Shown piece after piece: positions 9,766 to 26,389 of a stretch of DNA of 64,000 bases. Positions within the stretch are counted from its first letter, which is position 1; every line of letters starts with the position of its first letter. Below the pieces are notes generated by a model. The model searched no databases. It was not told where the DNA came from and saw only the letters and a program-made list of their open reading frames with translations. Position numbers and translations under genes: made by a program. The stretch lies in the NCBI GenBank assembly GCA_945787735.1, contig CALZIQ010000004.1:2075-66074 (forward strand), in the 5' to 3' direction. The stretch is from an uncultured Chromatiaceae bacterium (GTDB taxonomy: Bacteria; Pseudomonadota; Gammaproteobacteria; Tenderiales; Tenderiaceae).

Positions 9766-11178
9766 ATGGCAAAAAAATATGATGCTGGTGTAAAAGAATA
9801 CCGCGATCTGTACTGGGCACCGGACTACGTTCCTCTCGATACCGACTTGCTGGCCTGTTTTAAGGTGGTAGGGCAAGCTGGTGTCCCGCGTGAGGAAGTT
9901 GCTGCTGCGGTAGCGGCAGAAAGTTCAACTGGTACCTGGTCTACTGTATGGTCTGAGTTGTTGACCGACCTTGAATTCTATAAAGGTCGTGCGTATCGCA
10001 TCGAAGACGTGCCGGGTGATCCCGACGCTTTCTATACTTTCATTGCTTATCCTCTGGATTTGTTCGAAGAAGGTTCGGTTGTTAATGTGCTGACCTCTCT
10101 GGTTGGTAACGTATTTGGTTTCAAGGCCCTGCGTACTCTGCGTCTGGAAGATATCCGTTTTCCGATCGCCTTCATCAAGACTTGTGGTGGTCCTCCTGCT
10201 GGTATACAGCTGGAGCGCGATCGTCTGAATAAGTACGGTCGTCCATTGCTGGGTTGTACCATCAAACCTAAGCTGGGTCTGTCTGCTAAGAACTACGGTC
10301 GTGCGGTATATGAGTGTCTGCGCGGTGGTCTGGATCTGACCAAAGATGATGAAAACATCAACTCTCAGCCATTCATGCGCTGGCGTGATCGTTGGGACTT
10401 CGTTGCTGAAGCCATCGACAAGGCAGAGCGCGAAACCGGTGAGCGTAAGGGGCATTACTTAAACGTTACAGCGGCTACTCCAGAAGAAATGTACAAGCGC
10501 GCTGAGTACGCTAAAGAGCTGAACATGCCTATCATCATGCATGATTTCCTGACGGGTGGATTTACTGCTAACACTGGCCTGGCTAACTGGTGTCGTGAAA
10601 ATGGCATCCTGCTGCACATTCACCGTGCCATGCATGCTGTAATCGACCGTAATCCACACCACGGTATCCACTTCCGCGTATTGGCCAAGTGTCTGCGTCT
10701 GTCTGGTGGTGATCAGCTGCACACTGGTACCGTTGTAGGTAAGTTGGAAGGTGATCGTCAGTCAACACTAGGTTTCGTAGACCAGTTGCGTGAGTCTTTC
10801 GTTCCTGAAGATCGCAGCCGAGGTGTTTTCTTTGACCAAGACTGGGGTTCAATGCCAGGTGTATTCGCAGTAGCTTCTGGTGGTATCCACGTATGGCACA
10901 TGCCTGCGCTGCTGAATATCTTTGGTGATGATTCTTGTTTGCAGTTCGGTGGTGGTACGCAGGGTCACCCATGGGGTAATGCTGCAGGTGCTTCGGCTAA
11001 CCGTGTAGCACTGGAAGCCTGTGTTAAAGCCCGTAACGAGGGCCGTGAACTTGAGCGTGAAGCACGTGAAATTCTGACAGAAGCTGCCCAGCATAGCCCA
11101 GAGTTGGCTATTGCGATGGAAACTTGGAAAGAAATCAAGTTTGAATTCGACACTGTTGACAAGTTGGACGTTGCATAA
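9766..11178 (+). CDS. cbbL: RubisCO form IA large subunit
   Basis: 470-aa ORF starting '[17 protein letters not shown]', with the carbamylation-site region '[23 protein letters not shown]'. It is followed by cbbS and the cso genes. Confidence 0.98.
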
Positions 11179-11226
11179 CGTCCCGTCTTTCCTGAACAAC
11201 GTACGAATTAACAGAGAGGAATAAAG

Positions 11227-11562
11227 ATGAATACCGGAATTGTAGGTGATTATCAAACCAAGGCCCAATTAGAGACTTTTAGTTATCTTCCTAAGTTCAC
11301 CGCTGAAGACGTGCAAAAGCAAATTGCATACATTATTGCCAATAGCTGGTCCCCAGCGATTGAACATGAGCATCCAAGTAATTCCATGGATCACTACTGG
11401 ACTATGTGGAAGCTCCCCTTCTTCGGTGAAACTAATATGGGTAATGTGTTGACTGAGCTCGAAGCATGTCGTCGTGCCTATCCAGATCATCATCTTCGTT
11501 TGAGTGGTTACGACTCATATAGACAAAGCCAGGGTGTTAGCTTTGGGGTTTATGAAGGTTAA
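11227..11562 (+). CDS. cbbS: RubisCO small subunit
   Basis: 111-aa ORF 48 nt after cbbL, containing 'ETFSYLP...W.MWKLPFF'. Confidence 0.95.
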   Translation: MNTGIVGDYQTKAQLETFSYLPKFTAEDVQKQIAYIIANSWSPAIEHEHPSNSMDHYWTMWKLPFFGETNMGNVLTELEACRRAYPDHHLRLSGYDSYRQSQGVSFGVYEG

Positions 11563-11600
11563 GAGCTAAGAAGTAAGTTAAATCACGAGCGTCAGAAGAT

Positions 11601-11632
11601 GAATGTGAATAGCTGCACAGCTATTCGCATTC
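11601..11632 (+). promoter_or_regulatory. 14-bp stem-loop (one T-G wobble, GCAC loop) in the cbbS-csoS2 spacer
   Basis: GAATGTGAATAGCT gcac AGCTATTCGCATTC. There is no U-tract after it, so it is more likely a processing, stability or attenuation hairpin than a full terminator. Confidence 0.5.
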
Positions 11633-11650
11633 AGAACTGCCAGTACGGAG

Positions 11651-13948
11651 ATGACAATGGCACAAACAGCACGCGAAGCATCATTGGCTCGCCGCAAGGC
11701 ATTATCGTCAAGTGGTAAAGCCGCAATAACAGGAAAAGTTGATCGTACTCGCGCGGCATCTGCTGCTGCGGCTACAACATCGGTGCCGGCGACAAGTGCA
11801 CCTGCAGCATCAGCGTCTGCTGTAACGTACGCTGCTGCTCCTAACGCAGTTGCGCAGAGTGGCAGCAGTGCACGTAAAGCTGCATTGTCACGACGTATTG
11901 CAATGTCAAAAGGCGGCAAAAGGGCTGTAGCAAGTGCAGATAGAGTGCGCACTGGCGCTGGCCGCGCTTCAACAAACACCCCTGCAGCGGCTGAGCGCAA
12001 AGAAGGTTGTGATTGTGGGTGTGGTGAATGCGGTGGAAAGAAAAAGTCTGCTGCAGCAACAGGCGATTTGAACTTGTCATCGCTGGCCGTCCCACAAGTT
12101 ACTGTAAATGTACCGAACAAAATTGCAATGAGTCCTGCCAAAGCGGCGTCATTGTCGCGTCGTAAGGCTTTGTCTGCTAAAGGCAAGGCTGCGTTAAAAG
12201 GTGGCTCCGTGAGTGAGGCAAGTGCAGCACGTGCAGCTAATCCAAATATTAGTAGCCGTGAACTGGCTCAGGCATTGCGTCAGCAGCGCAGCGCTAAAGG
12301 CAAGACGGATAAGAAGAATACATCTGCGGTTGCGACAGGTCCTGGTCGTCATCGTAAGCCTCAAGAACCAGCGGAAGATCAGCCCTGGAAAGTTGGTGTG
12401 ACTGAAACGGCTTCTGGCCAGGCAGTTACGGGTACCATGGTAGATCGTGTCGCAGAAGTAACGGGAAATGAGGCAAGTACCTGCCGCACTGTTACAGGCA
12501 CAGAGTACATGGGGGCTGATGTTTTTCAAAGTTACTGTAAAGCTGAACCAAAAGCCGGTTTTAACCGTGTTTCTGTGACGACGACAGGTTCAGGTAATCC
12601 GGTGAGTGGCATTAGTGTTAGTCGTAGCGCCAAAGTAACTGGCAACGAGCCAGGCACATGTAAGGCGGTCACGGGAACTGAATATGTATCTTCAGAACAG
12701 GCTAATGCGTTCTGTGCGTCAAAAGCTCCAACTAAGCCGGCCAAGATTACATTGGCTGAAACGGCTAAGGGTAAAACAGTAAGCGGAAGCAACGTTGGTC
12801 GTTCAAGTAAAGTAACGGGTGATGAGCCTGGTTCTAATCGCCAACTAACTGGTACTCAGTATATGCAAGCCGGAAACGGAAATGCACCGACAAAAGTTGG
12901 AGTGAGCAAAACGCTACGCGGTGGTTCCGTTTCAGGTACACAGGTTGGCCGTAGCGACAAGGTGACAGGTGATGAGCCGGGTAGTTGCCGTAATGTTACT
13001 GGCGATGATTATGTAGGCGCAGAACAATATTCAGGTTTTTGCAAGAGTGCGCCTGCACCGACTGATCAGAAGGTAGGTGTGTCTGCCACTCTGATGGGAA
13101 AGGCTGTAACAGGTACCATGACTGATCGTGGTCGAAACGTAACGGGTAATGAAGCGGGTACCTGTAAAGCCGTTTCCGGCACGCCTTACGCCGGTTCTGC
13201 GCAGGCAGAAGCGTTTTGTTCATCGCCTGAAAAGTTTATGGCGATGGCGCGTGCACGCAAAGGTACGAGTAATGTAGGGCCGGTCGCTACGGGTCTTCAG
13301 CCGGGGATTAACGGTGTAATGACTGGCGCTGCCAAAGGTGCTTGTGAGCCTGTAACAGGCACGCCTTATATCGGTGCGGATCAGGCCGCCAATGCATGCC
13401 CAGCAACTGCGGCAACGCCAGTGAGTCCTGACTTTCCTCAGCCTATCGCAGGTCAGCCTTGGGGAGAGTTCAGTGTCGCGCCACCTTCAGGTGGTGCGTA
13501 TCAAGGTGCTCAGGTGAGCGGTATAACAGGTAGTCGCTATGAGCAAGGGCAAATTACCGGACCATTTGGGATGGCTGATGGCAAGGTAACAGGCACAGAA
13601 GAAGCGCGCTTCGGCGGGGGTGCTAAAACGGCAATGCCTGAGCCTGTTGTTGAGCCGATTGGAATGGTTGACGGCCCTGTTAAATCGCGCGTTACCGGTG
13701 AGGGTATGGCGGCTGGCCAGAAGATTACTGGCGACGATTGGGATCGTGGTGATCGAGTTACAGGTACTGAAGGTAATTCTGCGACACGTCGTAATCCCAC
13801 GCTTCGTGGTCCTACGCCTATGGCTTCAATGGCTGTGGTCAACAAGCGTAATGAAGAGGCACCTGTACCAGTAAGCAAAGTAACAGGAAGCAGTGGTAAT
13901 ACAGAGAAAGGTTCTTTGATTACTTATTCTGGTGGTGCTCGCGGTTAA
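11651..13948 (+). CDS. csoS2: Carboxysome scaffold protein CsoS2
   Basis: 765-aa low-complexity ORF. It has four basic N-terminal repeats ('RRKALSSSGKAA', 'RKAALSRRIAMSKGGKRA', 'SLSRRKALSAKGKAA', 'LRQQRSAKGK') and repeated 'VTG(N/D)E..(T/S)C..VTGT(E/Q)Y' middle repeats. Its position after cbbS also fits. The start could be the ATG at 11657. Confidence 0.9.
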   Translation: MTMAQTAREASLARRKALSSSGKAAITGKVDRTRAASAAAATTSVPATSAPAASASAVTYAAAPNAVAQSGSSARKAALSRRIAMSKGGKRAVASADRVRTGAGRASTNTPAAAERKEGCDCGCGECGGKKKSAAATGDLNLSSLAVPQVTVNVPNKIAMSPAKAASLSRRKALSAKGKAALKGGSVSEASAARAANPNISSRELAQALRQQRSAKGKTDKKNTSAVATGPGRHRKPQEPAEDQPWKVGVTETASGQAVTGTMVDRVAEVTGNEASTCRTVTGTEYMGADVFQSYCKAEPKAGFNRVSVTTTGSGNPVSGISVSRSAKVTGNEPGTCKAVTGTEYVSSEQANAFCASKAPTKPAKITLAETAKGKTVSGSNVGRSSKVTGDEPGSNRQLTGTQYMQAGNGNAPTKVGVSKTLRGGSVSGTQVGRSDKVTGDEPGSCRNVTGDDYVGAEQYSGFCKSAPAPTDQKVGVSATLMGKAVTGTMTDRGRNVTGNEAGTCKAVSGTPYAGSAQAEAFCSSPEKFMAMARARKGTSNVGPVATGLQPGINGVMTGAAKGACEPVTGTPYIGADQAANACPATAATPVSPDFPQPIAGQPWGEFSVAPPSGGAYQGAQVSGITGSRYEQGQITGPFGMADGKVTGTEEARFGGGAKTAMPEPVVEPIGMVDGPVKSRVTGEGMAAGQKITGDDWDRGDRVTGTEGNSATRRNPTLRGPTPMASMAVVNKRNEEAPVPVSKVTGSSGNTEKGSLITYSGGARG
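13096..13165 (+). other. Candidate -1 programmed ribosomal frameshift element inside csoS2
   Basis: There is an in-frame X_XXY_YYZ heptamer G_GGA_AAG at 13096-13102. After a 6-nt spacer comes a 9-bp stem, ACAGGTACC (13109-13117) paired with GGTACCTGT (13157-13165). The -1 frame reaches TGA at 13123-13125. Confidence 0.45.
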
Positions 13949-13974
13949 TAATCCCGGCATTATGTAGGTAGAAA

Positions 13975-15477
13975 ATGATTAGGCGTAGACCAACAAGTTC
14001 TTTGTCGAGAAGTAATCGAGAAAGAGCAGTTCAGCCAAAGACAGCGAATAGTAGTCGCTCATCAATGATGAGACCTCTGACTGCTGTGTCTGGCTCCGCC
14101 GATCATCCACTGGTAGATGGCTTTGAAAACAGCCATTTGTATCAATACGAGACGTCAGTCAAAAAAGCGTTTGATGCAATTGTGCCAACCTTGAAAAAGG
14201 TTTCGGCATACCAGCACGAAGAAGATTTTGTTGTACGTGTGCAAACAGTAGCCATGCAACAACTTGGGTTTGAGTTGCCAGATGAAATACTGGAAAACGC
14301 CTGGGTTGATCAATTGGACATGCGTTCATTGTTTGCTTGGTGTGTGTTCAAGACTTATCACCGTTTTTGTGATGATTTTTTTGGCAAAGCACCACTGAAC
14401 AATAAAAACGCTGAAGGGTTTCAGAGCTTTCTTCAGCAGTGTGGTTTCCACACCTTGGATGTTTCGCCCTGTGCAGACGGACGACTGGCCCATGCTATTC
14501 GTTACGTCCTAAGGCTGCCGATTGAAGCGGTTCGCCGTAAGTCTTACGCTGGCGCCATGTTTGATATTGATAACAGCATCCAGAAGTGGGTAGAAACGGA
14601 AATGCTGCGTTACAGGGAAGGCCAGCCAAATACGGCAGATGCATCGACGCGTTATCTGAAGACTGTTGCCTATCACTTCAGTTCGGTTGATCCGAGTCAT
14701 GAGGGTTGCGCGGCGCATGGCTCTGATGATGCGAAAGCGGCAGCGGAAGGTTTGAATCGTTTGTTGGCGTTTCAGCAGGCAATCGAAAACAGTTTTTGTT
14801 GTGGTGCCTCTATCGATCTGTTGTTGTTAGGTATTGATACAGACACTGACGCAATCAAGGTGCATATCCCTGATGCGAACGGCAACATTGATTTAGATAA
14901 GTTTGTTGATGCCAGAGAGGTTTATCTGCAAACACAACGCTTGTCAGCGACTGAGGGAATGCAGCGAATCGAACAGATGATTCGTAATGTGCAAGAAAGT
15001 GTTAACGAAGGGATGTTGAAGCTGATAAGCAAGCTGCTCGTTAACAACTTGTCGCAAATTGAATATGTACGTCGCTACTTTGGTAGCAACTACAAAGATA
15101 TCGGCCATGCTGAACGTTTTATCGGAGCAGGTATCGGTTTTGAAGAGGTGCAACTACGCAATCTGACATATTTTGCGTATTTGGACACTGTTGAGGAGTC
15201 AACGGCTGACTTTGATGTTGGCATTAAGATCTTCAGTAAACTGAATGTTGCAAATGGTTTGCCGGTGCCCGTTGTGATTCGGTTTGATTATCACGGCCAG
15301 GTTCCCGGGGCACGTGAAAGAGCAGTAGAACGTTGTCAGCGTGTTTCAGATGCAGTGGAGAGCAGATATGGCGAGCTTGCAGAAAAAGGTTTGTTGCACA
15401 CGCTGCTGGTAATTCGTGATTGCAATGCAAACGGCCAGATAGAGATTTTAGGTTCGTCGTTGAAAACGGCGATATAG
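13975..15477 (+). CDS. csoS3: Carboxysome shell carbonic anhydrase CsoSCA (CsoS3)
   Basis: 500-aa ORF containing 'DVSPCADGRL', 'YHFSSVDPSHEGCAAHGSDD' and 'CCGASIDLLLLGIDTDTDAI', which match remembered CsoSCA motifs. Confidence 0.9.
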   Translation: MIRRRPTSSLSRSNRERAVQPKTANSSRSSMMRPLTAVSGSADHPLVDGFENSHLYQYETSVKKAFDAIVPTLKKVSAYQHEEDFVVRVQTVAMQQLGFELPDEILENAWVDQLDMRSLFAWCVFKTYHRFCDDFFGKAPLNNKNAEGFQSFLQQCGFHTLDVSPCADGRLAHAIRYVLRLPIEAVRRKSYAGAMFDIDNSIQKWVETEMLRYREGQPNTADASTRYLKTVAYHFSSVDPSHEGCAAHGSDDAKAAAEGLNRLLAFQQAIENSFCCGASIDLLLLGIDTDTDAIKVHIPDANGNIDLDKFVDAREVYLQTQRLSATEGMQRIEQMIRNVQESVNEGMLKLISKLLVNNLSQIEYVRRYFGSNYKDIGHAERFIGAGIGFEEVQLRNLTYFAYLDTVEESTADFDVGIKIFSKLNVANGLPVPVVIRFDYHGQVPGARERAVERCQRVSDAVESRYGELAEKGLLHTLLVIRDCNANGQIEILGSSLKTAI

Positions 15478-15492
15478 CGCGGAGATGACCAG

Positions 15493-15738
15493 GTGAAAAT
15501 CGTTCAGGTAGAAAAACCTTTGGTGTCGACCAACCGCATTCCGGAAATGGAGCACAAGCATTTGCAAGTCGTGCGTGATGGTTCTTCGTTAGCCGTGGCC
15601 GTTGACGCCGTAGGTGCTAAACCTGGAGATTGGGTGATTTGTGTTGGTAGTTCGGCCGCGCGTGAAGCTGCAGGGAGTAAAGGGTATCCGAGTGACCTGA
15701 CCATCGTGGGCATAATTGACCACTGGGAAGAAGAATAG
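15493..15738 (+). CDS. csoS4A: Carboxysome vertex (pentamer) protein CsoS4A, EutN/CcmL family
   Basis: 81-aa ORF with a GTG start after 'ggaga', beginning 'MKIVQVEKPLVSTNRIPEM'. Confidence 0.85.
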   Translation: MKIVQVEKPLVSTNRIPEMEHKHLQVVRDGSSLAVAVDAVGAKPGDWVICVGSSAAREAAGSKGYPSDLTIVGIIDHWEEE

Positions 15739-15748
15739 GCTGTCAGCC

Positions 15749-16006
15749 GTGGATATCTACCAGGCAGAAAAGACATTGGTTTGTACTAGCCGTATACCCG
15801 GCTTAAAACAAGCTCCTTTGCGTATCTTACGTAGCAGAAGCGGCAGTAAAGTGGTAGCAACCGATCCGGTTGGTGTAAGAGAAGGTAATTGGGTTTTTAC
15901 CTCAAGTGGCTCGGCAGCACGTTTTGCACAAGGCGACTTTGAAGTACTGACTGATTTAACGATTGCAGGAATTATTGATAACTGGCAAGAAGACGCCAGT
16001 CAATAA
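15749..16006 (+). CDS. csoS4B: Carboxysome vertex protein CsoS4B, EutN/CcmL family
   Basis: I chose the in-frame GTG at 15749, 11 nt after the csoS4A stop. The track start at 15716 would overlap csoS4A. Contains 'TLVCTSRIPGL...GSAARF'. Confidence 0.8.
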   Translation: MDIYQAEKTLVCTSRIPGLKQAPLRILRSRSGSKVVATDPVGVREGNWVFTSSGSAARFAQGDFEVLTDLTIAGIIDNWQEDASQ

Positions 16007-16055
16007 ATTTAAAGACAGTAATTTTAATTTAACTGAGATATCAGGAGACAAACAA

Positions 16056-16355
16056 ATGGCTAGTGAAAACTACGGTATTGCCTTGGGTATGATCGAAACT
16101 CGTGGCTTAGTGCCAGCAATTGAAGCAGCAGATGCGATGACCAAAGCAGCTGAAGTTCGTCTGATTGGTCGTGAGTTTGTTGGTGGTGGTTATGTCACTG
16201 TTTTGGTTCGTGGCGAAACAGGCGCAGTAAACGCAGCCGTTCGTGCGGGTGCTGACGCTTGTGAACGTGTTGGTGACGGCCTTGTGGCTGCGCACATCAT
16301 TGCACGCCCTCATAAAGAAGTTGAGCCAGTATTACCAACTGGTGGCGCTGCTTAA
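16056..16355 (+). CDS. csoS1: Carboxysome hexameric shell protein CsoS1 (BMC-H), copy 1
   Basis: ATG at 16056 after 'aggaga'. Contains '[31 protein letters not shown]'. The track start at 15963 is an extension. Confidence 0.95.
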   Translation: MASENYGIALGMIETRGLVPAIEAADAMTKAAEVRLIGREFVGGGYVTVLVRGETGAVNAAVRAGADACERVGDGLVAAHIIARPHKEVEPVLPTGGAA

Positions 16356-16409
16356 TTTAAGCACATTATTTTTTAAACGAGACATTAGATACTCTAGAGG
16401 AGAGCGAAG

Positions 16410-16700
16410 ATGGCCAATGATAATTACGGTATTGCTCTGGGCATGATTGAAACACGTGGTTTAGTGCCAGCAATAGAAGCAGCAGATGCAATGACTAAAG
16501 CAGCTGAAGTTCGTCTGGTTGGACGTGAGTTTGTTGGTGGCGGTTACGTTACCGTTCTGGTTCGTGGTGAAACAGGTGCAGTGAACGCAGCCGTTCGTGC
16601 CGGTGCTGATGCCTGCGAGCGTGTCGGTGACGGCCTTGTGGCTGCACACATCATCGCCCGCCCACATAATGAAGTTGAGAATGTATTAGGCAAGAAGTAG
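16410..16700 (+). CDS. csoS1: Carboxysome hexameric shell protein CsoS1 (BMC-H), copy 2
   Basis: 96-aa ORF whose core is almost identical in protein sequence to copies 1 and 3. Confidence 0.95.
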
Positions 16701-16758
16701 CATATGCTACAAATTTTACAATCCAAACAAGCCATTTTTCATAAAGGAGCATAAGGCC

Positions 16759-17055
16759 ATGGCAAATGAAACATACGGTATTGCATTGGGTATGATTGAA
16801 ACCCGCGGTTTGGTACCGGCTATTGAAGCGGCGGATGCGATGACAAAAGCAGCGGAAGTGCGCCTTGTAGGTCGCGAATTTGTTGGCGGTGGTTATGTCA
16901 CTGTGCTCGTTCGTGGCGAAACAGGTGCTGTGAATGCGGCTGTTCGTGCCGGTGCCGACGCGTGTGAGCGTGTGGGTGACGGACTTGTAGCTGCACACAT
17001 CATTGCTCGCCCACACAAGGAAGTTGAGCAAGTACTGGGTGGTGCTCAGGCCTAA
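16759..17055 (+). CDS. csoS1: Carboxysome hexameric shell protein CsoS1 (BMC-H), copy 3
   Basis: 98-aa ORF with the same core sequence and a distinct C-terminal tail. Confidence 0.95.
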
Positions 17056-17145
17056 TATTGAGATGAGTGCATTGCGGGGAGCTGTTTTTTTACATGCTCC
17101 CAGCCATGTCTCTCGTACATACCTGGTTCTCATAGAGCAGCGTTA

Positions 17146-17598
17146 ATGATGCAGGATCCTACGGTACTTGGATATCTTGGTCGGGCTTTAAGCCTCGAAA
17201 TGTCAGCTGTGCAGCAATATCTGGCGTTAGCGAGGCTGTTGGAAGTTCGTGGCATGACCAAAGCGGGTGAAAAATTCCGTCATGAAGCACAGGAAGAAAT
17301 GGAGCATGCGGAACGGATCATGGGGCGGATGTTGGCGCTCGGGGTGGCCCCCGGCTCAAGTCAGCTCAGGCCGGTGCGTCTCGATGGTTCTTTGCCACAA
17401 CTGATGCAACATGTGAGTCAGTTAGAGCATCAAGCTGTGAGTTTTTATGCTCAGGCGGTGAGTCATTGCGAGCGGTCACAGGATCCTGAAAACAGGATGT
17501 TTTTCGCAACGCTGCTGCAAGAAGAGCAACAGCATGCCTCTGACATGGATGCCTGGCGGCAGCAAATTGAGACCGGAATGACGGTCGAATTGGGTTAG
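17146..17598 (+). CDS. Bacterioferritin/ferritin-like di-iron domain protein, carboxysome-operon associated
   Basis: 150-aa ORF with two ExxH motifs ('EEMEHAERI', 'QEEQQHASD'). It sits directly after csoS1, as in other cso loci. Confidence 0.7.
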   Translation: MMQDPTVLGYLGRALSLEMSAVQQYLALARLLEVRGMTKAGEKFRHEAQEEMEHAERIMGRMLALGVAPGSSQLRPVRLDGSLPQLMQHVSQLEHQAVSFYAQAVSHCERSQDPENRMFFATLLQEEQQHASDMDAWRQQIETGMTVELG

Positions 17599-17612
17599 AC
17601 GAGGGCCACACC

Positions 17613-17891
17613 ATGATTGATAACTGGGTCATACGTAAACGTCCGGCACGCTTGGAACGCCGCTTTGAATTCTCTGACTATGAAGAAACGCGTGAGTTTT
17701 TAGATCGTGCTGCCGAACTGGCCGAGCGGGAGGATTACTACCCAGATATGAGTTTTGGCCGCACCCATGTCAGTATGACACTGAATCCTCGAGAGGAAGG
17801 TGGTGAAGTGGACGAGGCATTGATGGAATATGCCCGTATGGTGGATGCCTTGTTGCCAAGCTCCCGGCTTAGCGATCAGTCTGCTGGGTAA
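17613..17891 (+). CDS. Pterin-4a-carbinolamine-dehydratase-like protein (acRAF-type RubisCO assembly factor candidate)
   Basis: 92-aa ORF with PCD-fold-like 'DYYPDMSFGRTHVSMTL', in which YY replaces the catalytic HH of true PCDs. Its operon context also fits. Confidence 0.7.
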   Translation: MIDNWVIRKRPARLERRFEFSDYEETREFLDRAAELAEREDYYPDMSFGRTHVSMTLNPREEGGEVDEALMEYARMVDALLPSSRLSDQSAG

Positions 17892-17908: not shown

Positions 17909-18157
17909 ATGACTACCAACAGCAATCAGAATAAATCTAGCAATGAGAAGCCAGAAGCGAAATCAGCTGGGGTGGACAAGAACGTTGCTTCTACTGAAAA
18001 GCCAGATGTGACAGAGACTGCAGCGAGTTCTTCAACTGCTGCTAAGTCGGCACAAAAAACAGCTAAAACGCCGAGAAAAAAACAGGCACCACGTCGAAGT
18101 CAAAGCAAAGCTGAAGAATCTACGTTATTTTCTTCGCGTCGGGTATGGCCTGACTAA
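17909..18157 (+). CDS. Small disordered K/S/T/A/E-rich protein ending in RVWPD; McdB-like candidate
   Basis: ATG at 17909 follows 'gagagg'. The 82-aa product has almost no aromatic residues except the terminal W. It shares 'STEKP' and the C-terminal 'RVWPD' with the ORF at 23087-23242. Confidence 0.45.
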   Translation: MTTNSNQNKSSNEKPEAKSAGVDKNVASTEKPDVTETAASSSTAAKSAQKTAKTPRKKQAPRRSQSKAEESTLFSSRRVWPD

Positions 18158-18305: not shown

Positions 18306-19328
18306 GTGAGTATATCTAATCTTCTGGTCCCGGCAGTGCTGTTTTTTGCGCTGGGGTTTCTGGCCAGGGTGATAAAGTCGGATTTGCGTTTTCCACCCGA
18401 TCTGGCTAAAGCGCTATCAATCTACCTTTTAATGGCCATAGGCCTGCATGGTGGCTATGAGTTGGCGAAGGCAGACATGGTGACTGCCCTTAACTCCATC
18501 ATGTGGGCGCTGATTCTAGGCTTCACTTTACCGATTCTGGGTTACTTAATACTGGCGGTGACGCGCAAGGTTAATCCGTTGGATGCGGCGGCTATTTCCG
18601 CCCATTACGGTTCGGTCAGCGCCGGCACCTTCCTGACGGCGATCGCCTATCTGGATAATATCGGCGTTCAATACGAGACATATCCGCTGATCATGCTGGC
18701 TGTGATGGAGTCGCCGGCGATCATTGTCGGTCTGTTGCTTGCTGCCAAGGCGCGTCAAACTCTGGCTGCTCAGGAGGCGGCATCATCTCAAGGTGGAGCG
18801 GTAAGTTCACCGGATGAAGGTGGTGATAGTGGTAATAACTTTGGCGAATTGCTGCGTGATGCCTTTACCAATGGCAGCGTAGTGGTGCTCATCGGTTCCA
18901 TGATCATCGGTGCCATATCGGCACCTTCCGGTATGGAAAAGCTCTACCCCTTCGTCAACGATATTTTTATGGGTATATTGTGCTTGTTCTTGTTTGATAT
19001 GGGCATGGTGGCCGCAAAGCGTATTGGTGACTTTCGTAAGATCGGCATTGTGTTGGCGTTATTTGGGGTAGTGATGCCGGTGCTAGGTGGTCTAATCGGT
19101 GCGTATGTAGGCCACAGCATTCTCGGTTTCAGTGTTGGCGGTGCAACATTGGTAGCGATTCTCGGCGCCAGTGCCTCTTACATTGCGGTACCACCGGCAA
19201 TGCGCTTGGCAGTGCCTGAAGCGAATCCTTCGTTTTACCTAACGCTGTCTCTTGGTATCACCTTTCCATTCAATGTAATTGTTGGGATACCGTTGTATCA
19301 TAGTGTAGCGCAGGCATTGGCTGGATGA
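18306..19328 (+). CDS. sbtA: SbtA-like (DUF897) sodium-dependent bicarbonate transporter family permease
   Basis: 340-aa polytopic ORF with a GTG start. The N-terminus 'VLFFALGFLARVIKSDLRFPPDLAKALSIYLLMAIGLHGG' resembles SbtA-family proteins. It is followed by a PII-like gene. Confidence 0.75.
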   Translation: MSISNLLVPAVLFFALGFLARVIKSDLRFPPDLAKALSIYLLMAIGLHGGYELAKADMVTALNSIMWALILGFTLPILGYLILAVTRKVNPLDAAAISAHYGSVSAGTFLTAIAYLDNIGVQYETYPLIMLAVMESPAIIVGLLLAAKARQTLAAQEAASSQGGAVSSPDEGGDSGNNFGELLRDAFTNGSVVVLIGSMIIGAISAPSGMEKLYPFVNDIFMGILCLFLFDMGMVAAKRIGDFRKIGIVLALFGVVMPVLGGLIGAYVGHSILGFSVGGATLVAILGASASYIAVPPAMRLAVPEANPSFYLTLSLGITFPFNVIVGIPLYHSVAQALAG

Positions 19329-19363
19329 GCTGTATGTCTCTGAGTAATAAGGTCAGATAAATT

Positions 19364-19681
19364 ATGATTAAGCTGTACCCCGAAAAACTGCTTACCATTA
19401 TCACCAATGATTCGATGGAAGAGCGAATCATTGGCATGTTTAAAAAATATGGTGTCAATGGCTACACCATTTTTCAAGTTGGCGGTTCAGGATCGTCAGG
19501 GCATATTGATATGACTGGCTTCGATGCCAACATTATGGCCAAAGTAATTGTTACTAAAGAACAGCTAGATGTTTTGCTTGAGAGTATTGAACGTAAACTT
19601 CGCAAGGGTTATCACCTCACTGTTTATATCGCCGATGTGGATGTAATTACACCGGAAAAATTCGAACAGCGTCCACGCTAG
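19364..19681 (+). CDS. sbtB: PII-like signalling protein, SbtB-like partner of the permease
   Basis: 105-aa ORF with a beta-alpha-beta PII-like pattern, 'GVNGYTIFQVGGSGSSGH', 35 nt after sbtA. Confidence 0.65.
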   Translation: MIKLYPEKLLTIITNDSMEERIIGMFKKYGVNGYTIFQVGGSGSSGHIDMTGFDANIMAKVIVTKEQLDVLLESIERKLRKGYHLTVYIADVDVITPEKFEQRPR

Positions 19682-19715: not shown

Positions 19716-20768
19716 ATGACAAACAGCGACAATTCTCGGTTCAATGGCGGCCTACCGGACTATCTGGTTCGTCATACAACCTTTAGACAGATGCAAATCT
19801 TCGAGGCAGTTGTACGCTTGCAGAGTTTTACCCGGGCCGCCGAAGAGTTGTTTCTGACGCAGCCGACGGTGTCGACCCAGCTAAAAAAATTGACCGACGC
19901 AATGGGACTGCCACTGTTGGATCAGGCAGGTCGCAAGCTCAAGCCAACTGAAGCGGGTGAGGAGCTTTATCGGGCGATCCACCGCATTTTCGATTCACTG
20001 TCCGATCTAGATACTCGCATTTCAGGGCTCAAGGGATTGCGCCGAGGTCGCTTGCGTCTGGGGGTGATCACCACAGCTAAATACTTTGCGCCAGAGATCC
20101 TTGGTGGGTTTTGTCGCGACTATCCGGGTGTGGATGTATCGCTTATGGTGACTAATCGGGAGCATATCATCGAACGAATTCAGAATAATGAAGATGATAT
20201 TTACATTCTTGGGCGGCCACCTGAAAAGGAACTCAACCTCAAATGCTATCCATTTGCTCCTAATCCTTTGGTTGTGCTGGCGGCACCTGATCACCCATTG
20301 TGCCGCGAGTCAAATATCTCCCTTGAGCGACTGGCCGAGGAGCCGCTGATCTCGCGAGAGGCGGGTTCGGGTATTCGAGATACCACCATGCGGCTGTTTG
20401 CCGAGCGCGGGTTGACTCCACAGGTGCGTATGGAATTGGGTAGCAACGAGGCTATCAAACACGCGGTATTGGGTGGTCTGGGTGTGGCGGTAATGTCATT
20501 GCATGCGCTGGTTTTAGAAGGTGCGGATGGGCCTGTGGCTGTATTGGATGTAGAGGGATTCCCAATTGATCGCCAATGGTATTTAGCCTCTCACCAGGAA
20601 AAACAACTATCGCTCATCGCTACCACTTTTCTAGAGTTCGCCAAGGCCCACGGGCCGATTATTTCTGAGCGTATGGATACCCTCTTAGCGGCATTCAAGT
20701 GGCGCCAAAAAGCGAGGAATGCCACAAGTGAAAGCGCAGAATCGGTAGTCAAAGTAGAGCTTAAATGA
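19716..20768 (+). CDS. cbbR: LysR-family transcriptional regulator (CbbR-like by context)
   Basis: 350-aa ORF with HTH '[37 protein letters not shown]'. It is embedded in the CCM locus. Confidence 0.8.
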
Positions 20769-21391
20769 TTAGTTTACGCGCATATGTATTTATCGATTCG
20801 CTGCAGCCCCAGCTGGCCACCTATATGGGAACGGTATCCCAGGGGTTTCTGCCGGTGCCCGGTGATTCCTGTCTGTGGATGGAAGTTTCTCCCGGTATGG
20901 CCATTCATCGACTCACCGATGTTGCGCTCAAGGCAACTCGTGTCCATTTAGGTGCGCAGGTGGTAGAGCGGGCCTTTGGCTCCATGGTATTTCACCACCG
21001 GGATCAGAGTGATGTGATCGAAGCGGGTCATGCAGTGCTTAATGTGCTCCGTACCGATGAGGATGCCCGTCAGAAATGCCGTATTGCCTGGAGCGAGACG
21101 GTCCGTGCCATCACGCCAGACCATGCAGTCTTGATCAACCGTCAGGACCGTAAAGGCTCCATGATCTTGCCGGGTCAGAGTATGTTTATACTTGAGACTG
21201 AGCCGGCAGGTTATATCGTCTATGCCGCCAACGAGGCGGAAAAGGCTGCTAATATCACCTTGGTGGATGCCCGGGCAGTTGGGGCCTTCGGTCGACTGAC
21301 GCTTGCCGGCAAAGAGGCTGACATCGATGCTGCAGCCCATGCTGCCAGACATGCGGTGCAAAGCCTTTCAGGGATCGATCCTAGTCAATGA
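20765..21391 (+). CDS. csoS1D: Tandem-BMC-domain shell protein CsoS1D (pseudohexamer/BMC-T)
   Basis: 208-aa ORF containing '[40 protein letters not shown]' and '[29 protein letters not shown]...[10 protein letters not shown]'. Its ATG overlaps the cbbR stop (ATGA). Confidence 0.8.
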
Positions 21392-21442
21392 ACAAGCGCA
21401 CTATAGCCGACTGCGTAACTAATTCAGATTTCTTGTATTCTT

Positions 21443-21457
21443 ACGCCCTGAGGGCGT
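21443..21457. other. Short GC hairpin in the convergent csoS1D/NUDIX spacer
   Basis: ACGCCC tga GGGCGT, followed about 30 nt later by the G-rich box 'GGGGGTGGGGGATT'. Confidence 0.3.
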
Positions 21458-21581
21458 GTCAGGCATAGGGCTGGAGTAGGAGGGGGTGGGGGATTGCGCG
21501 CTCAAGGTTCAATGTTGCAGTCGCAGTAGATTTTGTCTGAGAAGTCTAAGCTCGAACGTCTAATACTTGATCAGATTGGTC

Positions 21582-22133
21582 CTATGAAAACATTCGGCGC
21601 GTTTTCAGCACCATACGACGTAAAGAGAGTGCGTTGTTGAAGCGACAAACCTGATCCAAGTGTACCCAGCGCACTTCATGGGACTCGACATTGCCCGGCA
21701 ACGATAGCCGATCATCAATCTCGACCAAAAAACGAATGTCGAAATGCACGTGACGGGGATCGTGTGAACTCTCATGAACCGTATGCACATCCACGTCAAA
21801 AACATTCTCACTAAGTAGTTTGATGTGCTCAATGTCGACCCCGGATTCCTCGGCGGTTTCCTTTAACACCACTCGCAACATGTCGGGATCACCATCGGCA
21901 TGGCCGCCGGGTTGTAGCCAAAGATCAAGCTTGCGGTGGTGCATCATCAGCACATGGTCCCGTGCCGGATTTATGACCCAGGATGAGCCGGAAACATGGC
22001 CAGGTAGAAGCTCACGGTCAAAACAGTTGAGGTGTTGGGCAATAAATCGGCGCGTGCGGTCTACCATCGCCGCCTCTTCCATATACGGTGTTCGATAATG
22101 GGTCAGTAATTGTAAAAGTTGTTGCCGGTGCAT
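21582..22133 (-). CDS. NUDIX hydrolase
   Basis: 183-aa ORF with the Nudix box 'GGHADGDPDMLRVVLKETAEESGV'. Confidence 0.8.
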   Translation of the reverse strand: MHRQQLLQLLTHYRTPYMEEAAMVDRTRRFIAQHLNCFDRELLPGHVSGSSWVINPARDHVLMMHHRKLDLWLQPGGHADGDPDMLRVVLKETAEESGVDIEHIKLLSENVFDVDVHTVHESSHDPRHVHFDIRFLVEIDDRLSLPGNVESHEVRWVHLDQVCRFNNALSLRRMVLKTRRMFS

Positions 22134-22451
22134 GGTGTGCGATCTCAGATCAGCCGGTTATTCTACTATTTCAAAGTGTACACAATAGTGGGGGGGACTG
22201 CATTGGAATCATCAATGGCTACTATTGCTAAATATGAATAGTGCGCTAACTATCAATGCAGCAGCCAAATCAGTTGGGCTCTAGCGTTGAGTCTGTCTGT
22301 GCGGGCCTCAGTCCTGAAAGCTTGTAATTTTTGTACACTACAATGTCCTCGCTACTAAGTGGAGGAGAAGGCAAGCCAAATCGCTGCAGGTTTGCTTTGT
22401 ACGACGATTTTTGATTATATTCATTCGAATGACTTAAACGGGATCAATGGC

Positions 22452-23087
22452 ATGTCGGCACTGGTATTTGCGGTATCAAACCAAAAGGGTGGTACAGGCA
22501 AGACGACTCTGAGTATGAATCTGGCTGCCGGTCTGGCAAAAAGAGGGCGAACGCTGGTGATCGATGCGGATCCGCAAGGTTCAGCTGGGCAATGGGCGGG
22601 TCTAGCGCCAGATGAGCGGCCATTTCCATTGTCGGTGATTTCCGTGGCCGGTAACCTGGCGCGAGAGGTTAACCATTTTCGCCAGAATTATCAGTACATC
22701 GTAATAGATTGTCCGCCGACGCTGGAAACGGACACAACCAGACAGGCGATGCTGGCATCGGATATCGTTTTGATTCCGGTGCAGCCATCCCCCATCGACT
22801 TATGGGCCAGTGTTAGCTTGTCGAATACCATAGAGAAGATCAGGCAGGACAAACCAGAAATTCAGGCCTTCATCGTGGTCAATCAAGCCGAACCGCGTAA
22901 CGCGCTTTCACGCGCCATGCATCAGGCGTTGTTGGAATTTTCTATCCCTGCACTCAGCAACGTGTTGCGTCGCCGTGCAATTTATCGCAACTCAGCTATA
23001 CAAGGTGCTAGTGTATTCTGCATCGGCAAGCGTGGTGAGCCGGCCGCGGCAGAGGTTAACTCAATCATTGAGGAGTTATTGCAATAA
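22452..23087 (+). CDS. mcdA: ParA/MinD-family ATPase, McdA-like (carboxysome positioning) by context
   Basis: Deviant Walker A 'SNQKGGTGKTT', 'VIDADPQGS' and 'YIVIDCPP'. The ATG at 22452 gives a typical ParA N-terminus. An in-frame GTG at 22359 is the alternative start. Confidence 0.7.
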   Translation: MSALVFAVSNQKGGTGKTTLSMNLAAGLAKRGRTLVIDADPQGSAGQWAGLAPDERPFPLSVISVAGNLAREVNHFRQNYQYIVIDCPPTLETDTTRQAMLASDIVLIPVQPSPIDLWASVSLSNTIEKIRQDKPEIQAFIVVNQAEPRNALSRAMHQALLEFSIPALSNVLRRRAIYRNSAIQGASVFCIGKRGEPAAAEVNSIIEELLQ

Positions 23088-23242
23088 TGAAAACAACTTT
23101 GGCAGACAAACTCGCCGCAAGTGTGCGTGAGGCAAAGCAGCAGCAAACGTCAACCGAAAAACCGGAAACTCAAACTGCAGAGCCCGTCAAAGCGGAGGCT
23201 CAGGCAAAGCAGGTGCCGGCAAAACGCGTGTGGCCGGATTGA
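23087..23242 (+). CDS. mcdB: 51-aa disordered protein ending in RVWPD; McdB-like adaptor candidate (not in ORF track)
   Basis: My translation is MKTTLADKLAASVREAKQQQTSTEKPETQTAEPVKAEAQAKQVPAKRVWPD. Its ATG overlaps the mcdA TAA by 1 nt (TAATG). Confidence 0.45.
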   Translation: MKTTLADKLAASVREAKQQQTSTEKPETQTAEPVKAEAQAKQVPAKRVWPD

Positions 23243-23744
23243 TATTTTGGATTAGCCAGCAATGGTTATAATTGTGCGTCCAGGGCTAGCGCATAAAAAA
23301 TATAAAAATAAATAAAGGGTCAATTATCAATTTTGACAGCTTGCTCCCCGTATTTATTTATAATTGAGGGCGTAGGGCGTTTAGAATAATTATACATTAG
23401 AAGAAAATGTCCCGTGCTTAGTTGTAACGAATCTCTTTTAAGCTGCACGTTGTACTGCCTGCCGTATTAGATTCGTATTAACCGTAATTTTGTGGTTCGG
23501 AGGGGGCAGCACAGTAATCGCGATGGCCATCATGGCGGTGGCCTTATATGATGGATAGGGACGATCCTTACAACAGGTTTGTCTGTGTACACGGGTTGAT
23601 CTTATTCTGCAATAAAGTGGCGTTGGACAATGTAATGATAGTTCCTGATAACAATTATTCAGGCTGATTCTATATTCATATATAAGATCAAATAGGCCGT
23701 AATCGATGGTTCAGTTGGCTTAGACATGATCAAATAAGGTAATT

Positions 23745-23764
23745 AATTTTCGAATACGAAAATT
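23745..23764. promoter_or_regulatory. Perfect 8-bp inverted repeat AATTTTCG-aata-CGAAAATT in the dabB upstream region
   Basis: Read directly from the sequence, about 185 nt upstream of the dabB ATG. It is an operator or hairpin candidate only. Confidence 0.2.
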
Positions 23765-23949
23765 TTACGATTTGATGAAGATGAACAGAGTGTAAAGAGA
23801 ACAAATTATGGAATATCTGAATATCAGTAATCAGGTGTTTCTCTAAGCCAAGATAAAACTACAGTCTTCACGCCAGAGACAATAATAGAGCTTGGTATTG
23901 GACATAATGCACTTTTGGTACCTTTTTTAAATGGAGATAGTTCGGCTTT

Positions 23950-25629
23950 ATGGAGCAACTAATCGTTTTACTGCCGGCATTACCGCTTTTCTCAGCCCTT
24001 TTTATTCATGTTTTATCCAGTCAGCTTGGTCGTCGGGTAGCTGATCTAAGCGTTGCGACAGCAGTTTTGGCGTTTATAGTAGCTGCTGTGCTACTGGGGC
24101 TAGCGCTAAAAGGCAATGATGCAAGCCAGGTAGCTATTGGTGGCACATGGGGTGTCTTGCTTGCCGATCCATTAAGCACATTGATGGGAGTGCTTATAGC
24201 CGGTATCAGTCTTATCGTACGCATATACTCAGTGCGATATATGGTAGAGGAGAAGGGTTACGGCCGCTTCTTTATGTTGCTAGATCTGATGACCGCGACA
24301 CTTTTAATCATGGTGGCGGCCGGTGATTTGCTAACTCTGCTAGTGGCCTGGCACTTGATTGGTGTATTGCTTTACTTCTTGCTCGGTTTCGATACGCGCA
24401 GCCAGACTGCAAGCCGCTACGCTTTTTGGACCTTGATAACCTATCGCATCGGCGATTTGGCCTTGGTGTTGGCTGCCGGGCTGTTGTTTCACGCCTATGG
24501 CACTTGGACGTTATCAGAAATCTTTGCACAAATCACAGAAAACCCTGGTGCACATAACTATTTCGGTTTCGCGTTGGAAGAGCTTGTCGGAACACTGCTG
24601 GCCTTCGCTGCCTTTGCGCGCTCTGCGCAATTTTTTCTCCATACCTGGTTGCCTTACACCATGGATGGTCCCACGCCTGTGTCGGCATTGATGCATGCGG
24701 GCATTGTGAATGCAGGTGGTTTTCTGATTAATCGTTTTGCGCCGGTATTTGTTCAAACAGACAGCGTGTTGCACTTATTGTTTGTTGTGGGTTTGGTGAC
24801 CGCGATCATTGGTTCCGTTTTGATGCTGACGCAAAACGATATCAAAAAGGCGCTTGGCTATTCCACCATGGGGCAGATGGGTTTCATGATTATGGAATGC
24901 GGTGTTGGTGCATTCTCACTGGCTATTTACCACTTAATTGCACACGGTCTGTTCAAAGGAACATTGTTCCTTGGTGCGGGCGCCGTCATCAATGAAGCGC
25001 GCGCACATGATGGGGTGCCTAAAGATGATCTATACACCTTTGTTGTAGAGCGACGACCGGCCAAAGTCCGCCAGCCTTGGTTGGTTATGGCGGGGATGAC
25101 ACTGGCCGTGCCGATCATTATTTTGTTTATCGCGCATTGGCTTGTGGCCCAGAATTATTTTCAGCAGCAGGGTGCTATCGTGTTGCTCTTCTTTGGTTGG
25201 GTAACTGGCGCGCAATTGTTATTCACCGCCTACCGTATGGATACACAAAATGTCTGGCGCCTGGTGGGTACGGTGGTTTTTTCATTCGCCGTGATTGTGT
25301 TGGGCTATGCTCTGATCAGCCACGCATTTGATCTATTTTTATACTCAGATCCGGAATTCCGTAGCCAAATTTATGTTGCCGCTGGCATTGACGTATTCTG
25401 GTTCGATGTCCTGGTTGTGCTCACCACCGTAGTCATCGTGGCCGGTTGGGTACTGACCTATTACTCTGAACAAAATGTACTGATCAGTCAAAAGAAAATA
25501 GGCCAAATTTGGTTGGGTTTTTATGCGTTAGTCTCTAGAGAGTTTTACATAATAGATATTTACGCATGGTTGACTCGCACACTGCTAAATGCAGCCGCGC
25601 GACTAAACGTTTTATTGAGGTGGCGCTAA
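23950..25629 (+). CDS. dabB: DabB: NuoL/ND5/MnhA-like proton-conducting membrane subunit of a DAB-type inorganic-carbon pump
   Basis: 559-aa polytopic ORF with 'WLPYTMDGPTPVSALMHAGIVNAGGFL' and 'HLIAHGLFKGTLFLGAGAV'. It lies upstream of a DUF2309 gene. Confidence 0.85.
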   Translation: MEQLIVLLPALPLFSALFIHVLSSQLGRRVADLSVATAVLAFIVAAVLLGLALKGNDASQVAIGGTWGVLLADPLSTLMGVLIAGISLIVRIYSVRYMVEEKGYGRFFMLLDLMTATLLIMVAAGDLLTLLVAWHLIGVLLYFLLGFDTRSQTASRYAFWTLITYRIGDLALVLAAGLLFHAYGTWTLSEIFAQITENPGAHNYFGFALEELVGTLLAFAAFARSAQFFLHTWLPYTMDGPTPVSALMHAGIVNAGGFLINRFAPVFVQTDSVLHLLFVVGLVTAIIGSVLMLTQNDIKKALGYSTMGQMGFMIMECGVGAFSLAIYHLIAHGLFKGTLFLGAGAVINEARAHDGVPKDDLYTFVVERRPAKVRQPWLVMAGMTLAVPIIILFIAHWLVAQNYFQQQGAIVLLFFGWVTGAQLLFTAYRMDTQNVWRLVGTVVFSFAVIVLGYALISHAFDLFLYSDPEFRSQIYVAAGIDVFWFDVLVVLTTVVIVAGWVLTYYSEQNVLISQKKIGQIWLGFYALVSREFYIIDIYAWLTRTLLNAAARLNVLLRWR

Positions 25630-25630
25630 C

Positions 25631-26389
25631 ATGTCAGAAGTGATGCTGCTGTTCGCGGGTTTATTTTTACCGCTGTTCCCGCTAAGTATGGTTTTCAACG
25701 AAATATTTGAGCGCCTACGCGCGCCCAAGTTGCGTATTGCATTATTGATGATATGGCCGCAGTTTGGCCTGATCATCGCACACAGTGCAGGTATCGAAAT
25801 GCCAGATTGGATCATAGTCTGGGCGCTGTTTACCGCAATGCTTTATGGTTTTAGAGTCCTGGCATTGCGTGAAGTAGGTCTATGGACCAGTTTTATGGCC
25901 ACATCAACCTGGGCAGTTTTGTGGCTTACATTGGATAGTAATGCTGGGCTGACCCAGTCGATCTTTTATGCCTTTGGATTTAGCGTGCCACTGGCAATGC
26001 TAGTGCTAATCAGTGGAGAGCTGGAAGAACGATTTGGAGCAGCATACACAGAATTATACGGTGGCCTGGCACTGACGCTGCCTCGTTTGAGCGGCGTGCT
26101 GGTATTTGTGGTATTAGCCATTATTGCCACGCCGTTGTTTCCTGGGTTCGCTGTTATGGTGGTCTCAATTGTTGGCTCCACCGCAAGTTCAATGGCGACT
26201 GCTATGACAGTGGCTGGCATATGGCTGCTGTGGGGTTGGGCGGGGGCCCGCTTACTGCAAGGTTTGATCATCGGGCCAGCCCACGAAGAGACGACCACGG
26301 ACCTCAGTGCCGCGACGGCATGGTTCTATGCGGCAATCTTAGGCCTGTTAGTCATCAGTGGAACATATTCAATAGGTGGCTTGTCATGA
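25631..26389 (+). CDS. Truncated, degenerate Proton_antipo_M (NuoM/N/ND4)-like membrane protein; possible extra DAB subunit
   Basis: 252-aa hydrophobic ORF. 'GLFLPLFPLSMVF' aligns by eye with NuoM 'KMPVVPLHGWL', and 'ERFGAAYTELYGGLALTLPRLSGVLVFVVLAIIATPLFPGF' fits the antiporter C-terminal pattern. It starts 1 nt after the dabB stop, and its stop overlaps the dabA ATG. Confidence 0.55.
   Translation: MSEVMLLFAGLFLPLFPLSMVFNEIFERLRAPKLRIALLMIWPQFGLIIAHSAGIEMPDWIIVWALFTAMLYGFRVLALREVGLWTSFMATSTWAVLWLTLDSNAGLTQSIFYAFGFSVPLAMLVLISGELEERFGAAYTELYGGLALTLPRLSGVLVFVVLAIIATPLFPGFAVMVVSIVGSTASSMATAMTVAGIWLLWGWAGARLLQGLIIGPAHEETTTDLSAATAWFYAAILGLLVISGTYSIGGLS

Follow-up and report, generated by a model that had tools for sequence, protein, structure and literature searches.

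In Halothiobacillus neapolitanus, a ParA-like gene of the carboxysome (cso) operon, mcdA, and a small coding sequence after it, mcdB, are both needed for the distribution of alpha-carboxysomes over the nucleoid, and deletion of either gene makes the carboxysomes collapse into polar aggregates (PMC8359340). Here, we describe a gene pair at positions 22452..23242 of a 64,000-nucleotide (nt) stretch of DNA from an uncultured Chromatiaceae bacterium (contig CALZIQ010000004.1; the whole stretch is called the window below), which consists of a ParA-type ATPase gene and a 51-codon open reading frame (ORF) that begins at its stop codon. An earlier note on this DNA, made from the letters of the sequence, had proposed that the ORF encodes an McdB-like carboxysome-positioning adaptor. 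Our analysis indicates that the pair is very probably a two-gene alpha-McdAB carboxysome-positioning module, with the 51-amino-acid (aa) product as a minimal alpha-McdB adaptor of Type 1.

Alpha-McdB proteins were defined by five features, namely, a gene located directly after mcdA, an N-terminus that is charged and conserved, a V(I)WPD end, disorder, and a low hydrophobicity combined with a bias toward A, P, K, S, and T, in a study by MacCready et al. 2021 whose set comprised 278 sequences (PMC8359340). Basalla et al. 2024 gave the consensus of the terminus as R(V/I)WPD and the length range as 51-169 aa, and showed that W94 of the H. neapolitanus McdB, the third residue from its end, is required for association with carboxysomes and that the C-terminal motif is sufficient (PMC11321042). 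McdA binding requires the first 20 residues of the same protein, which are also sufficient for it; K7 is critical, and L4, L8, and I12 are predicted to contribute (PMC12139897). Two mcdB genes are present in 12% of genomes, where Type 1 adjoins mcdA at another locus. Three gene arrangements have been published, and in arrangement (iii), found for example in Thiohalospira halophila, a Type 2 orphan lies in the cso operon and mcdA and Type 1 lie elsewhere (PMC8359340).

The first gene of the pair and its nucleotide-binding motif were placed as follows.

22452..23087, + strand: mcdA, encoding a putative alpha-McdA ParA-family ATPase of 211 aa, from ATG 22452 to TAA 23085-23087
22485..22508, + strand: deviant Walker A motif KGGTGKTT in the translation, residues 12-19, including the signature lysine K12

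The translated product matched the NCBIfam model NF041546 ParA_partition at 205.8 bits (cut-off, 180), and Pfam AAA_31 and CbiA also matched it. Orthologues with 46-83% identity to the window McdA were found, and in an alignment of 20 McdA orthologues, the Walker A positions K12, G13, G14, G16, K17, T18, and T19 were invariant, as were the stretches LVIDADPQ (D38 and D40) and YIVIDCPP (D86). A basic cluster, R174, R175, and R179, was also invariant in this alignment and is compatible with an ATP-dependent, non-specific binding of the nucleoid by McdA, as far as can be judged from the residues. The public annotation of a closely related locus, L001, places the start of mcdA at the same position and gives the same length of 211 aa. 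An upstream GTG at 22359, which would yield a 242-aa protein, was ruled out as the start; the orthologues are 207-214 aa long, and their starts correspond to ATG 22452.

The McdA orthologues of Thioalkalivibrio, Thiobacillus, Sulfuriferula, and Gallionella are encoded inside cso operons, after ferritin-like and pterin-dehydratase-like genes. The window McdA was 46-66% identical to the ParAs of the cso operons at loci L011-L021 and at most 42% identical to other ParAs (L022-L081). On the other hand, the solved structures nearest to it by sequence were those of plasmid ParF and ParA (4dzz and 5u1g; E about 1e-18), and its best NCBIfam model is a generic "ParA family partition ATPase," both of which would also suit a DNA-partition module of the ParF-ParG type, a possibility to which we return below with the data on the downstream gene.

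The second gene and its two conserved ends were located at the following positions.

23087..23242, + strand: mcdB Type 1, encoding the putative 51-aa carboxysome adaptor, its start overlapping the mcdA stop (TAATG), conserved after mcdA
23093..23155, + strand: N-terminal helix, residues 3-23, with the K8-L9...V13-R14 motif, a candidate McdA-binding module placed by AlphaFold2 and conservation
23225..23239, + strand: C-terminal RVWPD, residues 47-51, a candidate carboxysome-binding motif with invariant R47, W49, P50, and D51

The ATG (23087-23089) and the TAA of mcdA have one base in common, and the ORF extends for 51 codons to a TGA at 23240-23242, giving a product that ends in KRVWPD (MKTTLADKLAASVREAKQQQTSTEKPETQTAEPVKAEAQAKQVPAKRVWPD). 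Coordinates and sequence thus agree with the earlier note, which had described a ParA gene with KGGTGKTT whose TAA overlaps the ATG of this ORF. The K/Q/E/A/T-rich composition claimed in the note was likewise found (A 18%, K 14%, Q 12%, T 12%, and E 10%; A, P, K, S, and T together 55%), and the sole aromatic residue is W49, third from the end, within the WPD terminus. The protein is strongly hydrophilic, with a grand average of hydropathy (GRAVY) of -1.03, and its composition and hydropathy fit a disordered protein. Its N-terminal part contains the motif DKLAASVREAK. AlphaFold2, run with a 60-sequence alignment, predicted a helix over residues 3-23 with a predicted local distance difference test score (pLDDT) of 72-79 and no secondary structure beyond it; the pLDDT was 51-52 over residues 21-40.

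As the note had pointed out, this ORF was absent from the list of ORFs supplied with the sequence. Its absence is a threshold artefact, because the list had a cut-off of 60 aa, and the ORF appeared when the list was re-made with a minimum of 40 aa. The note's further remark, that so small a gene is easily missed by annotation, holds only in part: the exact 51-aa protein is present in an NCBI-derived collection, but some McdB copies are indeed uncalled, such as the Type 2 ORF of locus L082 described below. A variant with 98% identity is a called gene in the metagenome-assembled genome (MAG) GCA_947259155.1, where the gene order is identical.

To place the small ORF among its relatives, the alignment of the 20 McdA orthologues was used to scan one genome per species, and 80 loci of species other than H. 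neapolitanus and the window's own were listed, 20 of them with a ParA 46-70% identical to that of the window and 60, which served as controls, with a ParA at most 42% identical. All 19 loci of the former group that had DNA downstream carried a WPD-ending ORF of 57-140 aa, which started between -18 and +3 nt from the ParA stop. Three further relatives (L082, L083/84, and L085/86), reached through McdAs with 73-82% identity, had WPD-ending ORFs of 51, 62, and 60 aa at the same place, and such an ORF was also found at the mcdA stop in L001. Overall, the 22 distinct loci that were checked, i.e., those with an orthologous ParA and sequence continuing beyond its stop, all had a small WPD-ending ORF of 51-140 aa, which either abuts the ParA stop or overlaps it, so that both the ORF and its terminus, the retention of which the note had made the test of its proposal, are kept throughout this set. 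The terminus is rare elsewhere: only one of the 10,068 control ORFs of at least 30 aa in the 60 loci ended in WPD, a background of about 1e-4, and only 2 of the 659 ORFs of at least 30 aa in the window did so, namely, the 51-aa ORF and an 82-aa ORF described below.

The sequence features retained in these proteins lie at their two ends. Across 19 aligned small proteins, K8, L9, R14, R47, W49, P50, and D51 (window numbering) were invariant, and the segment between the ends was highly variable in length. A word-indexed search with the single 51-aa sequence found its own cluster only, whereas a profile search and an exhaustive phmmer search reached relatives. The profile search of 5.8 billion proteins returned 142 relatives; among the 120 of them listed, which were 52-136 aa long, all ended in R[V/I/C]WPD, and 115 had KLxx[SGA][VLI]R within their first 30 residues. 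The phmmer search, in which the 51-aa protein was the query against 1.84 billion representatives, found six relatives, all of 48-53 aa and all ending in [R/H]VWPD, and the very short form therefore typifies a small clade.

Selection on the gene was estimated against L082, which has a 51-aa orthologue and is an 82%-identical relative, because the window differs from L001 by only 3 nt in mcdB, too few for this purpose. The whole gene gave 0.279 nonsynonymous substitutions per site (dN) and 1.70 synonymous ones (dS), i.e., a dN/dS of about 0.16, and codons 1-20 gave a dN of 0.127, a dS of 1.54, and a dN/dS of about 0.08. The middle of the gene was heavily substituted, while both ends were retained. 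A stretch of N splits the mcdA of L082, which carries the label "partial."

These data bear on the simplest alternative, that the ORF is a chance or non-translated reading frame in the 3' region of mcdA. In favor of this alternative, the ORF is short, has a low complexity, and matches no family model. However, the ORF, its overlap or abutment with the mcdA stop, and both terminal motifs are kept where the McdAs are only 46-83% identical and the lengths vary from 51 to 140 aa, its dN/dS is well under 1, a Shine-Dalgarno-like motif precedes it at every locus checked (see below), the WPD background is about 1e-4, and the homologous gene of H. neapolitanus has a deletion phenotype (PMC8359340). 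The chance reading is excluded by the conservation and the dN/dS, and we give it practically no weight. From the conservation, the rarity of WPD, the Shine-Dalgarno-like motif, and the dN/dS together, it follows that the 51-codon ORF is a genuine protein-coding gene on which purifying selection acts, its two ends being constrained and its middle being free.

The same survey addresses the ParF-ParG-type alternative, in which the 51-aa protein would be the centromere-binding partner of a module for plasmid or chromosome segregation. Besides the structural and NCBIfam matches given above, gene order speaks for it, as ParF-type ATPases have small partners encoded directly 3'. However, none of the 60 control loci with other ParAs had a WPD-ending ORF downstream of the ParA, the orthologous pairs lie within cso operons, and a second gene, in the cso operon of the window, also encodes an RVWPD end. 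Furthermore, the 51-aa protein showed no DNA-binding fold (a single predicted helix and no Pfam, NCBIfam, or PHROG match), and a repeat search of positions 22100-24000 revealed only short two-copy matches and no centromere-like array. Given the lack of both a repeat array and a DNA-binding fold, along with the WPD terminus and the linkage to cso genes, we rejected this explanation as very unlikely.

The start region of mcdB contains a plausible initiation signal inside the preceding gene.

23070..23075, + strand: Shine-Dalgarno-like GAGGAG, within the last mcdA codons (IEELLQ), ending 11 nt before the mcdB ATG

A motif of the GAGG/GGAG type was found 7-17 nt 5' of the mcdB start at 22 of 22 loci (L003-L021 and L082-L086). 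It is made from the codons of the conserved McdA C-terminus I-E-E-(V/L), as GAGGAG or GAGGAGGT; these bases therefore have a double role, encoding the end of McdA and signalling translation initiation of the next gene. The TAATG overlap with this embedded Shine-Dalgarno-like sequence suggests that mcdA and mcdB are translationally coupled, and such coupling, if true, would keep McdA and McdB at a fixed ratio. Promoter and terminator scans of positions 21300-24100 gave counts at the shuffle expectation, so there was no usable signal in this region, and a search of the entire window against Rfam returned no match.

The alpha-McdAB interpretation is thus supported, as the note had proposed, by the adjoining McdA-type ParA, the R(V/I)WPD end, the basic N-terminus, and the hydrophilic, A/P/K/S/T-biased composition. 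A few points weigh against it. The link to the characterised H. neapolitanus proteins is indirect and runs through the family criteria and through orthologues located in cso operons, and the effects of McdB binding and deletion, shown for H. neapolitanus only, would carry over to the window organism by analogy. The AlphaFold2 model of the 51-aa protein is only modestly confident (mean pLDDT, 65), and residues 1-20 have a net charge of only +2 (4 K/R and 2 D/E), which makes them basic rather than highly charged. The protein also has no significant match in Pfam, NCBIfam, or PHROG, i.e., no independent family call. The absence of such a match is uninformative either way, because no alpha-McdB model exists in these three libraries. 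Apart from these limits, nothing we found contradicts the alpha-McdAB interpretation; the reality of the gene, its conservation, its motif architecture, and its genomic context were shown directly by this analysis.

By analogy with H. neapolitanus, on which the binding partners, the stimulation of the ATPase, and the positioning function proposed here are modelled, the module may work as follows. An ATP-bound McdA dimer would coat the nucleoid non-specifically. The amphipathic N-terminal helix of McdB (about residues 3-23, with K8-L9 and V13-R14) would bind this dimer and trigger its release from DNA, and the C-terminal RVWPD would anchor McdB on the carboxysome shell through W49, with a disordered, freely evolving spacer of roughly 25 residues joining the two modules. 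Carboxysomes coated with McdB would then deplete McdA locally, climb the resulting McdA gradients by a Brownian ratchet, and repel one another. The expected outcome is an even spacing of carboxysomes along the nucleoid, with no aggregation and a secured inheritance.

The earlier note had reported one McdB-like gene. The 51-aa ORF stood up to this analysis, but a second one had been overlooked at the end of the cso operon, which encodes the cargo organelle.

9766..17891, + strand: cso operon, with cbbL, cbbS, csoS2, csoSCA, csoS4A, csoS4B, three csoS1 genes, a ferritin-like gene, and a pterin-dehydratase-like gene (from ORF translations and Pfam)
17909..18157, + strand: putative mcdB Type 2 "orphan" of 82 aa with no adjacent mcdA, at the end of the cso operon (the listed ORF starts at TTG 17894)

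The 82-aa protein is encoded directly after the pterin-dehydratase-like gene and is called at that length in L001. It ends in SSRRVWPD, is rich in S, A, K, and T, and has a GRAVY of -1.34, and the KLxx[SG][VL]R motif is missing from its N-terminus (MTTNSNQNKSSNEKPE). Nothing significant was found for it in Pfam, NCBIfam, or PHROGs, the best match being a PHROG at E = 0.13. An equivalent ORF ending in LSRRVWPD follows the pterin-dehydratase-like gene in L082 (MAG GCA_040752855.1; positions 1958-2158, - strand), and it is missing from the genes called on that contig. By its position and its sequence, the gene at 17909..18157 matches the published alpha-McdB Type 2 orphan (PMC8359340), and with this second WPD gene in the cso operon, the locus has the published two-paralogue arrangement.

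The Type 2 paralogue would thus possess the shell-binding end without the McdA-binding helix, and it may therefore dilute productive tethers, as MacCready et al. 2021 raised as a possibility; that study described the role of Type 2 as unknown and the need for two paralogues as unclear (PMC8359340). No later test of the Type 2 function was found in the literature searched. We tentatively put forward a stronger version, which we regard as conceivable but doubtful: the Type 1 protein of this clade would have shrunk to 48-53 aa (helix, spacer of about 25 residues, and RVWPD) and would always be found beside a helix-less Type 2 of the cso operon, which would compete for shell sites and so set the number of McdA-engaging tethers per carboxysome. 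If true, the ParA ratchet would carry its own valency tuner, in the form of two partner paralogues on a single cargo.

The presence of two WPD proteins in one locus also raises the possibility that the 51-aa protein is a genuine McdB with a division of labour different from that in H. neapolitanus. For instance, most of the McdB on the shell could be the 82-aa protein, and the main task of the 51-aa protein could be to regulate McdA turnover, or the pair could contribute to carboxysome function beyond positioning. The very short spacer of the 51-aa form would fit this, as would the unclear need for two paralogues and the role beyond positioning of the McdB of Synechococcus elongatus (PMC8359340). 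However, both modules are intact in the 51-aa protein, as a direct tether needs, and nothing that we found demands another mechanism. We therefore consider such a departure improbable, albeit less so than the ParF-ParG-type explanation, and favor the alpha-McdAB positioning module with a direct tether.

The mcdAB pair sits in an alpha-carboxysome/carbon-concentrating locus. The cbbL gene starts at 9766, and cbbLS, csoS2, csoSCA, csoS4AB, and csoS1 span 9766-17055, followed by the ferritin-like gene at 17146 and the pterin-4a-carbinolamine-dehydratase-like gene at 17613. After the 82-aa ORF come an SbtA-family transporter gene, a P-II gene, a LysR regulator gene, a gene for a CsoS1D-like tandem-BMC (bacterial microcompartment domain) protein (20765), a divergent Nudix gene, the ParA gene, and the 51-aa ORF. 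DAB-type genes lie 3' of mcdB after 707 nt, encoding a proton-antiporter-like subunit, a 252-aa membrane protein, and DabA. All three contexts are represented among the orthologous loci: mcdAB lies inside the cso operon in L011-L021, it has no cso genes within 10 kb in L004, L005, L007-L010, and L083-L086, and in L003, L006, and L082 it is accompanied, as in the window, by nearby DAB genes, a Nudix gene, or a cso operon.

We also noted several features of the neighboring genes. The locus has two P-II-like genes, one after the SbtA-family transporter gene (18306-19681, + strand), with which it forms an SbtA/SbtB-like pair, and one after dabA (29496-29831, + strand), called at 108 aa in L001. 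The gene of the 208-aa tandem-BMC protein (20765-21391, + strand) overlaps the stop of the LysR gene with its start (ATGA). Its best NCBIfam match is the beta-carboxysome protein CcmP at 244.7 bits, under the 340-bit cut-off, and a precomputed Pfam hit on an identical protein is CsoS1D_N; based on this hit, it is a shell protein of the CsoS1D type whose gene lies outside the core cso operon.

The 707-nt spacer between mcdB and the DAB genes (23243-23949) is AT-rich, with a GC content of 0.37 as compared with about 0.5 in the neighboring genes. Within it lie an imperfect inverted repeat of 17 nt (23303-23319 and 23346-23362) and a two-copy 21-nt direct repeat that starts with TTATAATTG, at 23266 and 23358, and it may be the regulatory region of the DAB operon. 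The 252-aa membrane protein (25631-26389, + strand), encoded between the DabB-like gene and dabA, has no Pfam match and weakly resembles the C-terminal part of NuoM/MrpD (NCBIfam E = 4e-9, far below the cut-off); from this resemblance, it looks like a split-off C-terminal piece of a DabB subunit. The dabA ORF as listed (1095 aa, 26221 to 29508, + strand) overlaps the 252-aa gene. DabA is called at 1040 aa in a near-identical public contig, which would place its start near 26386.

With regard to novelty, alpha-McdAB, the WPD terminus, the Type 1/Type 2 split, and the gene arrangement of the window have been known since 2021, and the system was dissected experimentally in 2024-2025, so the identification made here is correct but ordinary and adds little scientifically. 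It does expose an annotation gap, namely, the lack of an alpha-McdB model in the family libraries: among the 120 listed relatives, none was named McdB, and nearly all that had a name were called "hypothetical protein." The 48-53-aa forms of this clade would be the shortest natural alpha-McdBs and could be used as compact templates when carboxysome positioning is engineered into heterologous hosts. As both paralogues stand side by side in one locus, it would also be a convenient system for testing the role of Type 2.

Among the known systems, ParF-ParG of plasmid TP228 and the small type Ib ParAs resemble the window pair in the ATPase, ParF being the nearest solved structure, and in having a small, downstream-encoded partner that acts through an N-terminal segment. 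They differ in that the window partner has no ribbon-helix-helix, that no centromere repeats flank it, and that the cargo would be a protein organelle rather than DNA. The beta-McdAB system of S. elongatus PCC 7942 is similar in combining a nucleoid-bound ParA-type ATPase with a carboxysome-binding partner that has a basic N-terminus and an invariant C-terminal tryptophan. However, beta-McdB proteins are 132-394 aa long, have a coiled coil and glutamine-rich stretches, and oligomerise, whereas the window protein is without these features (PMC8359340, PMC11321042).

The likeness to alpha-McdB Type 1 is closer: the small coding sequence immediately follows mcdA in a genome with a cso locus, and its product is disordered, hydrophilic, and A/P/K/S/T-rich and ends in R(V/I)WPD with W third from the end. 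Compared with the 96-aa McdB of H. neapolitanus, L5, K8-L9, and V13-R14 of the window protein match the N-terminal pattern (K7-L8) by position, not by alignment. At 51 aa, it is at the lower limit of the published range of 51-169 aa, with only about 25 residues between its modules. The overlap of the two genes is TAATG in the window and ATGA in most orthologues checked. In contrast to the Type 1 model, the pair lies outside the cso operon, 4.3 kb 3' of its last gene, with the sbtA-like, P-II, lysR, csoS1D-like, and divergent Nudix genes in between.

The locus as a whole resembles arrangement (iii), with a motif-less 82-aa WPD protein encoded after a pterin-dehydratase-like gene and a motif-bearing WPD protein encoded after mcdA elsewhere. 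The "distant" locus of the window is, however, only 4.3 kb off, in the same carbon-concentrating cluster and next to the DAB genes. The window, with a Type 2 gene at 17909..18157 and with mcdA and Type 1 at 22452..23242, is therefore an instance of the third published arrangement.

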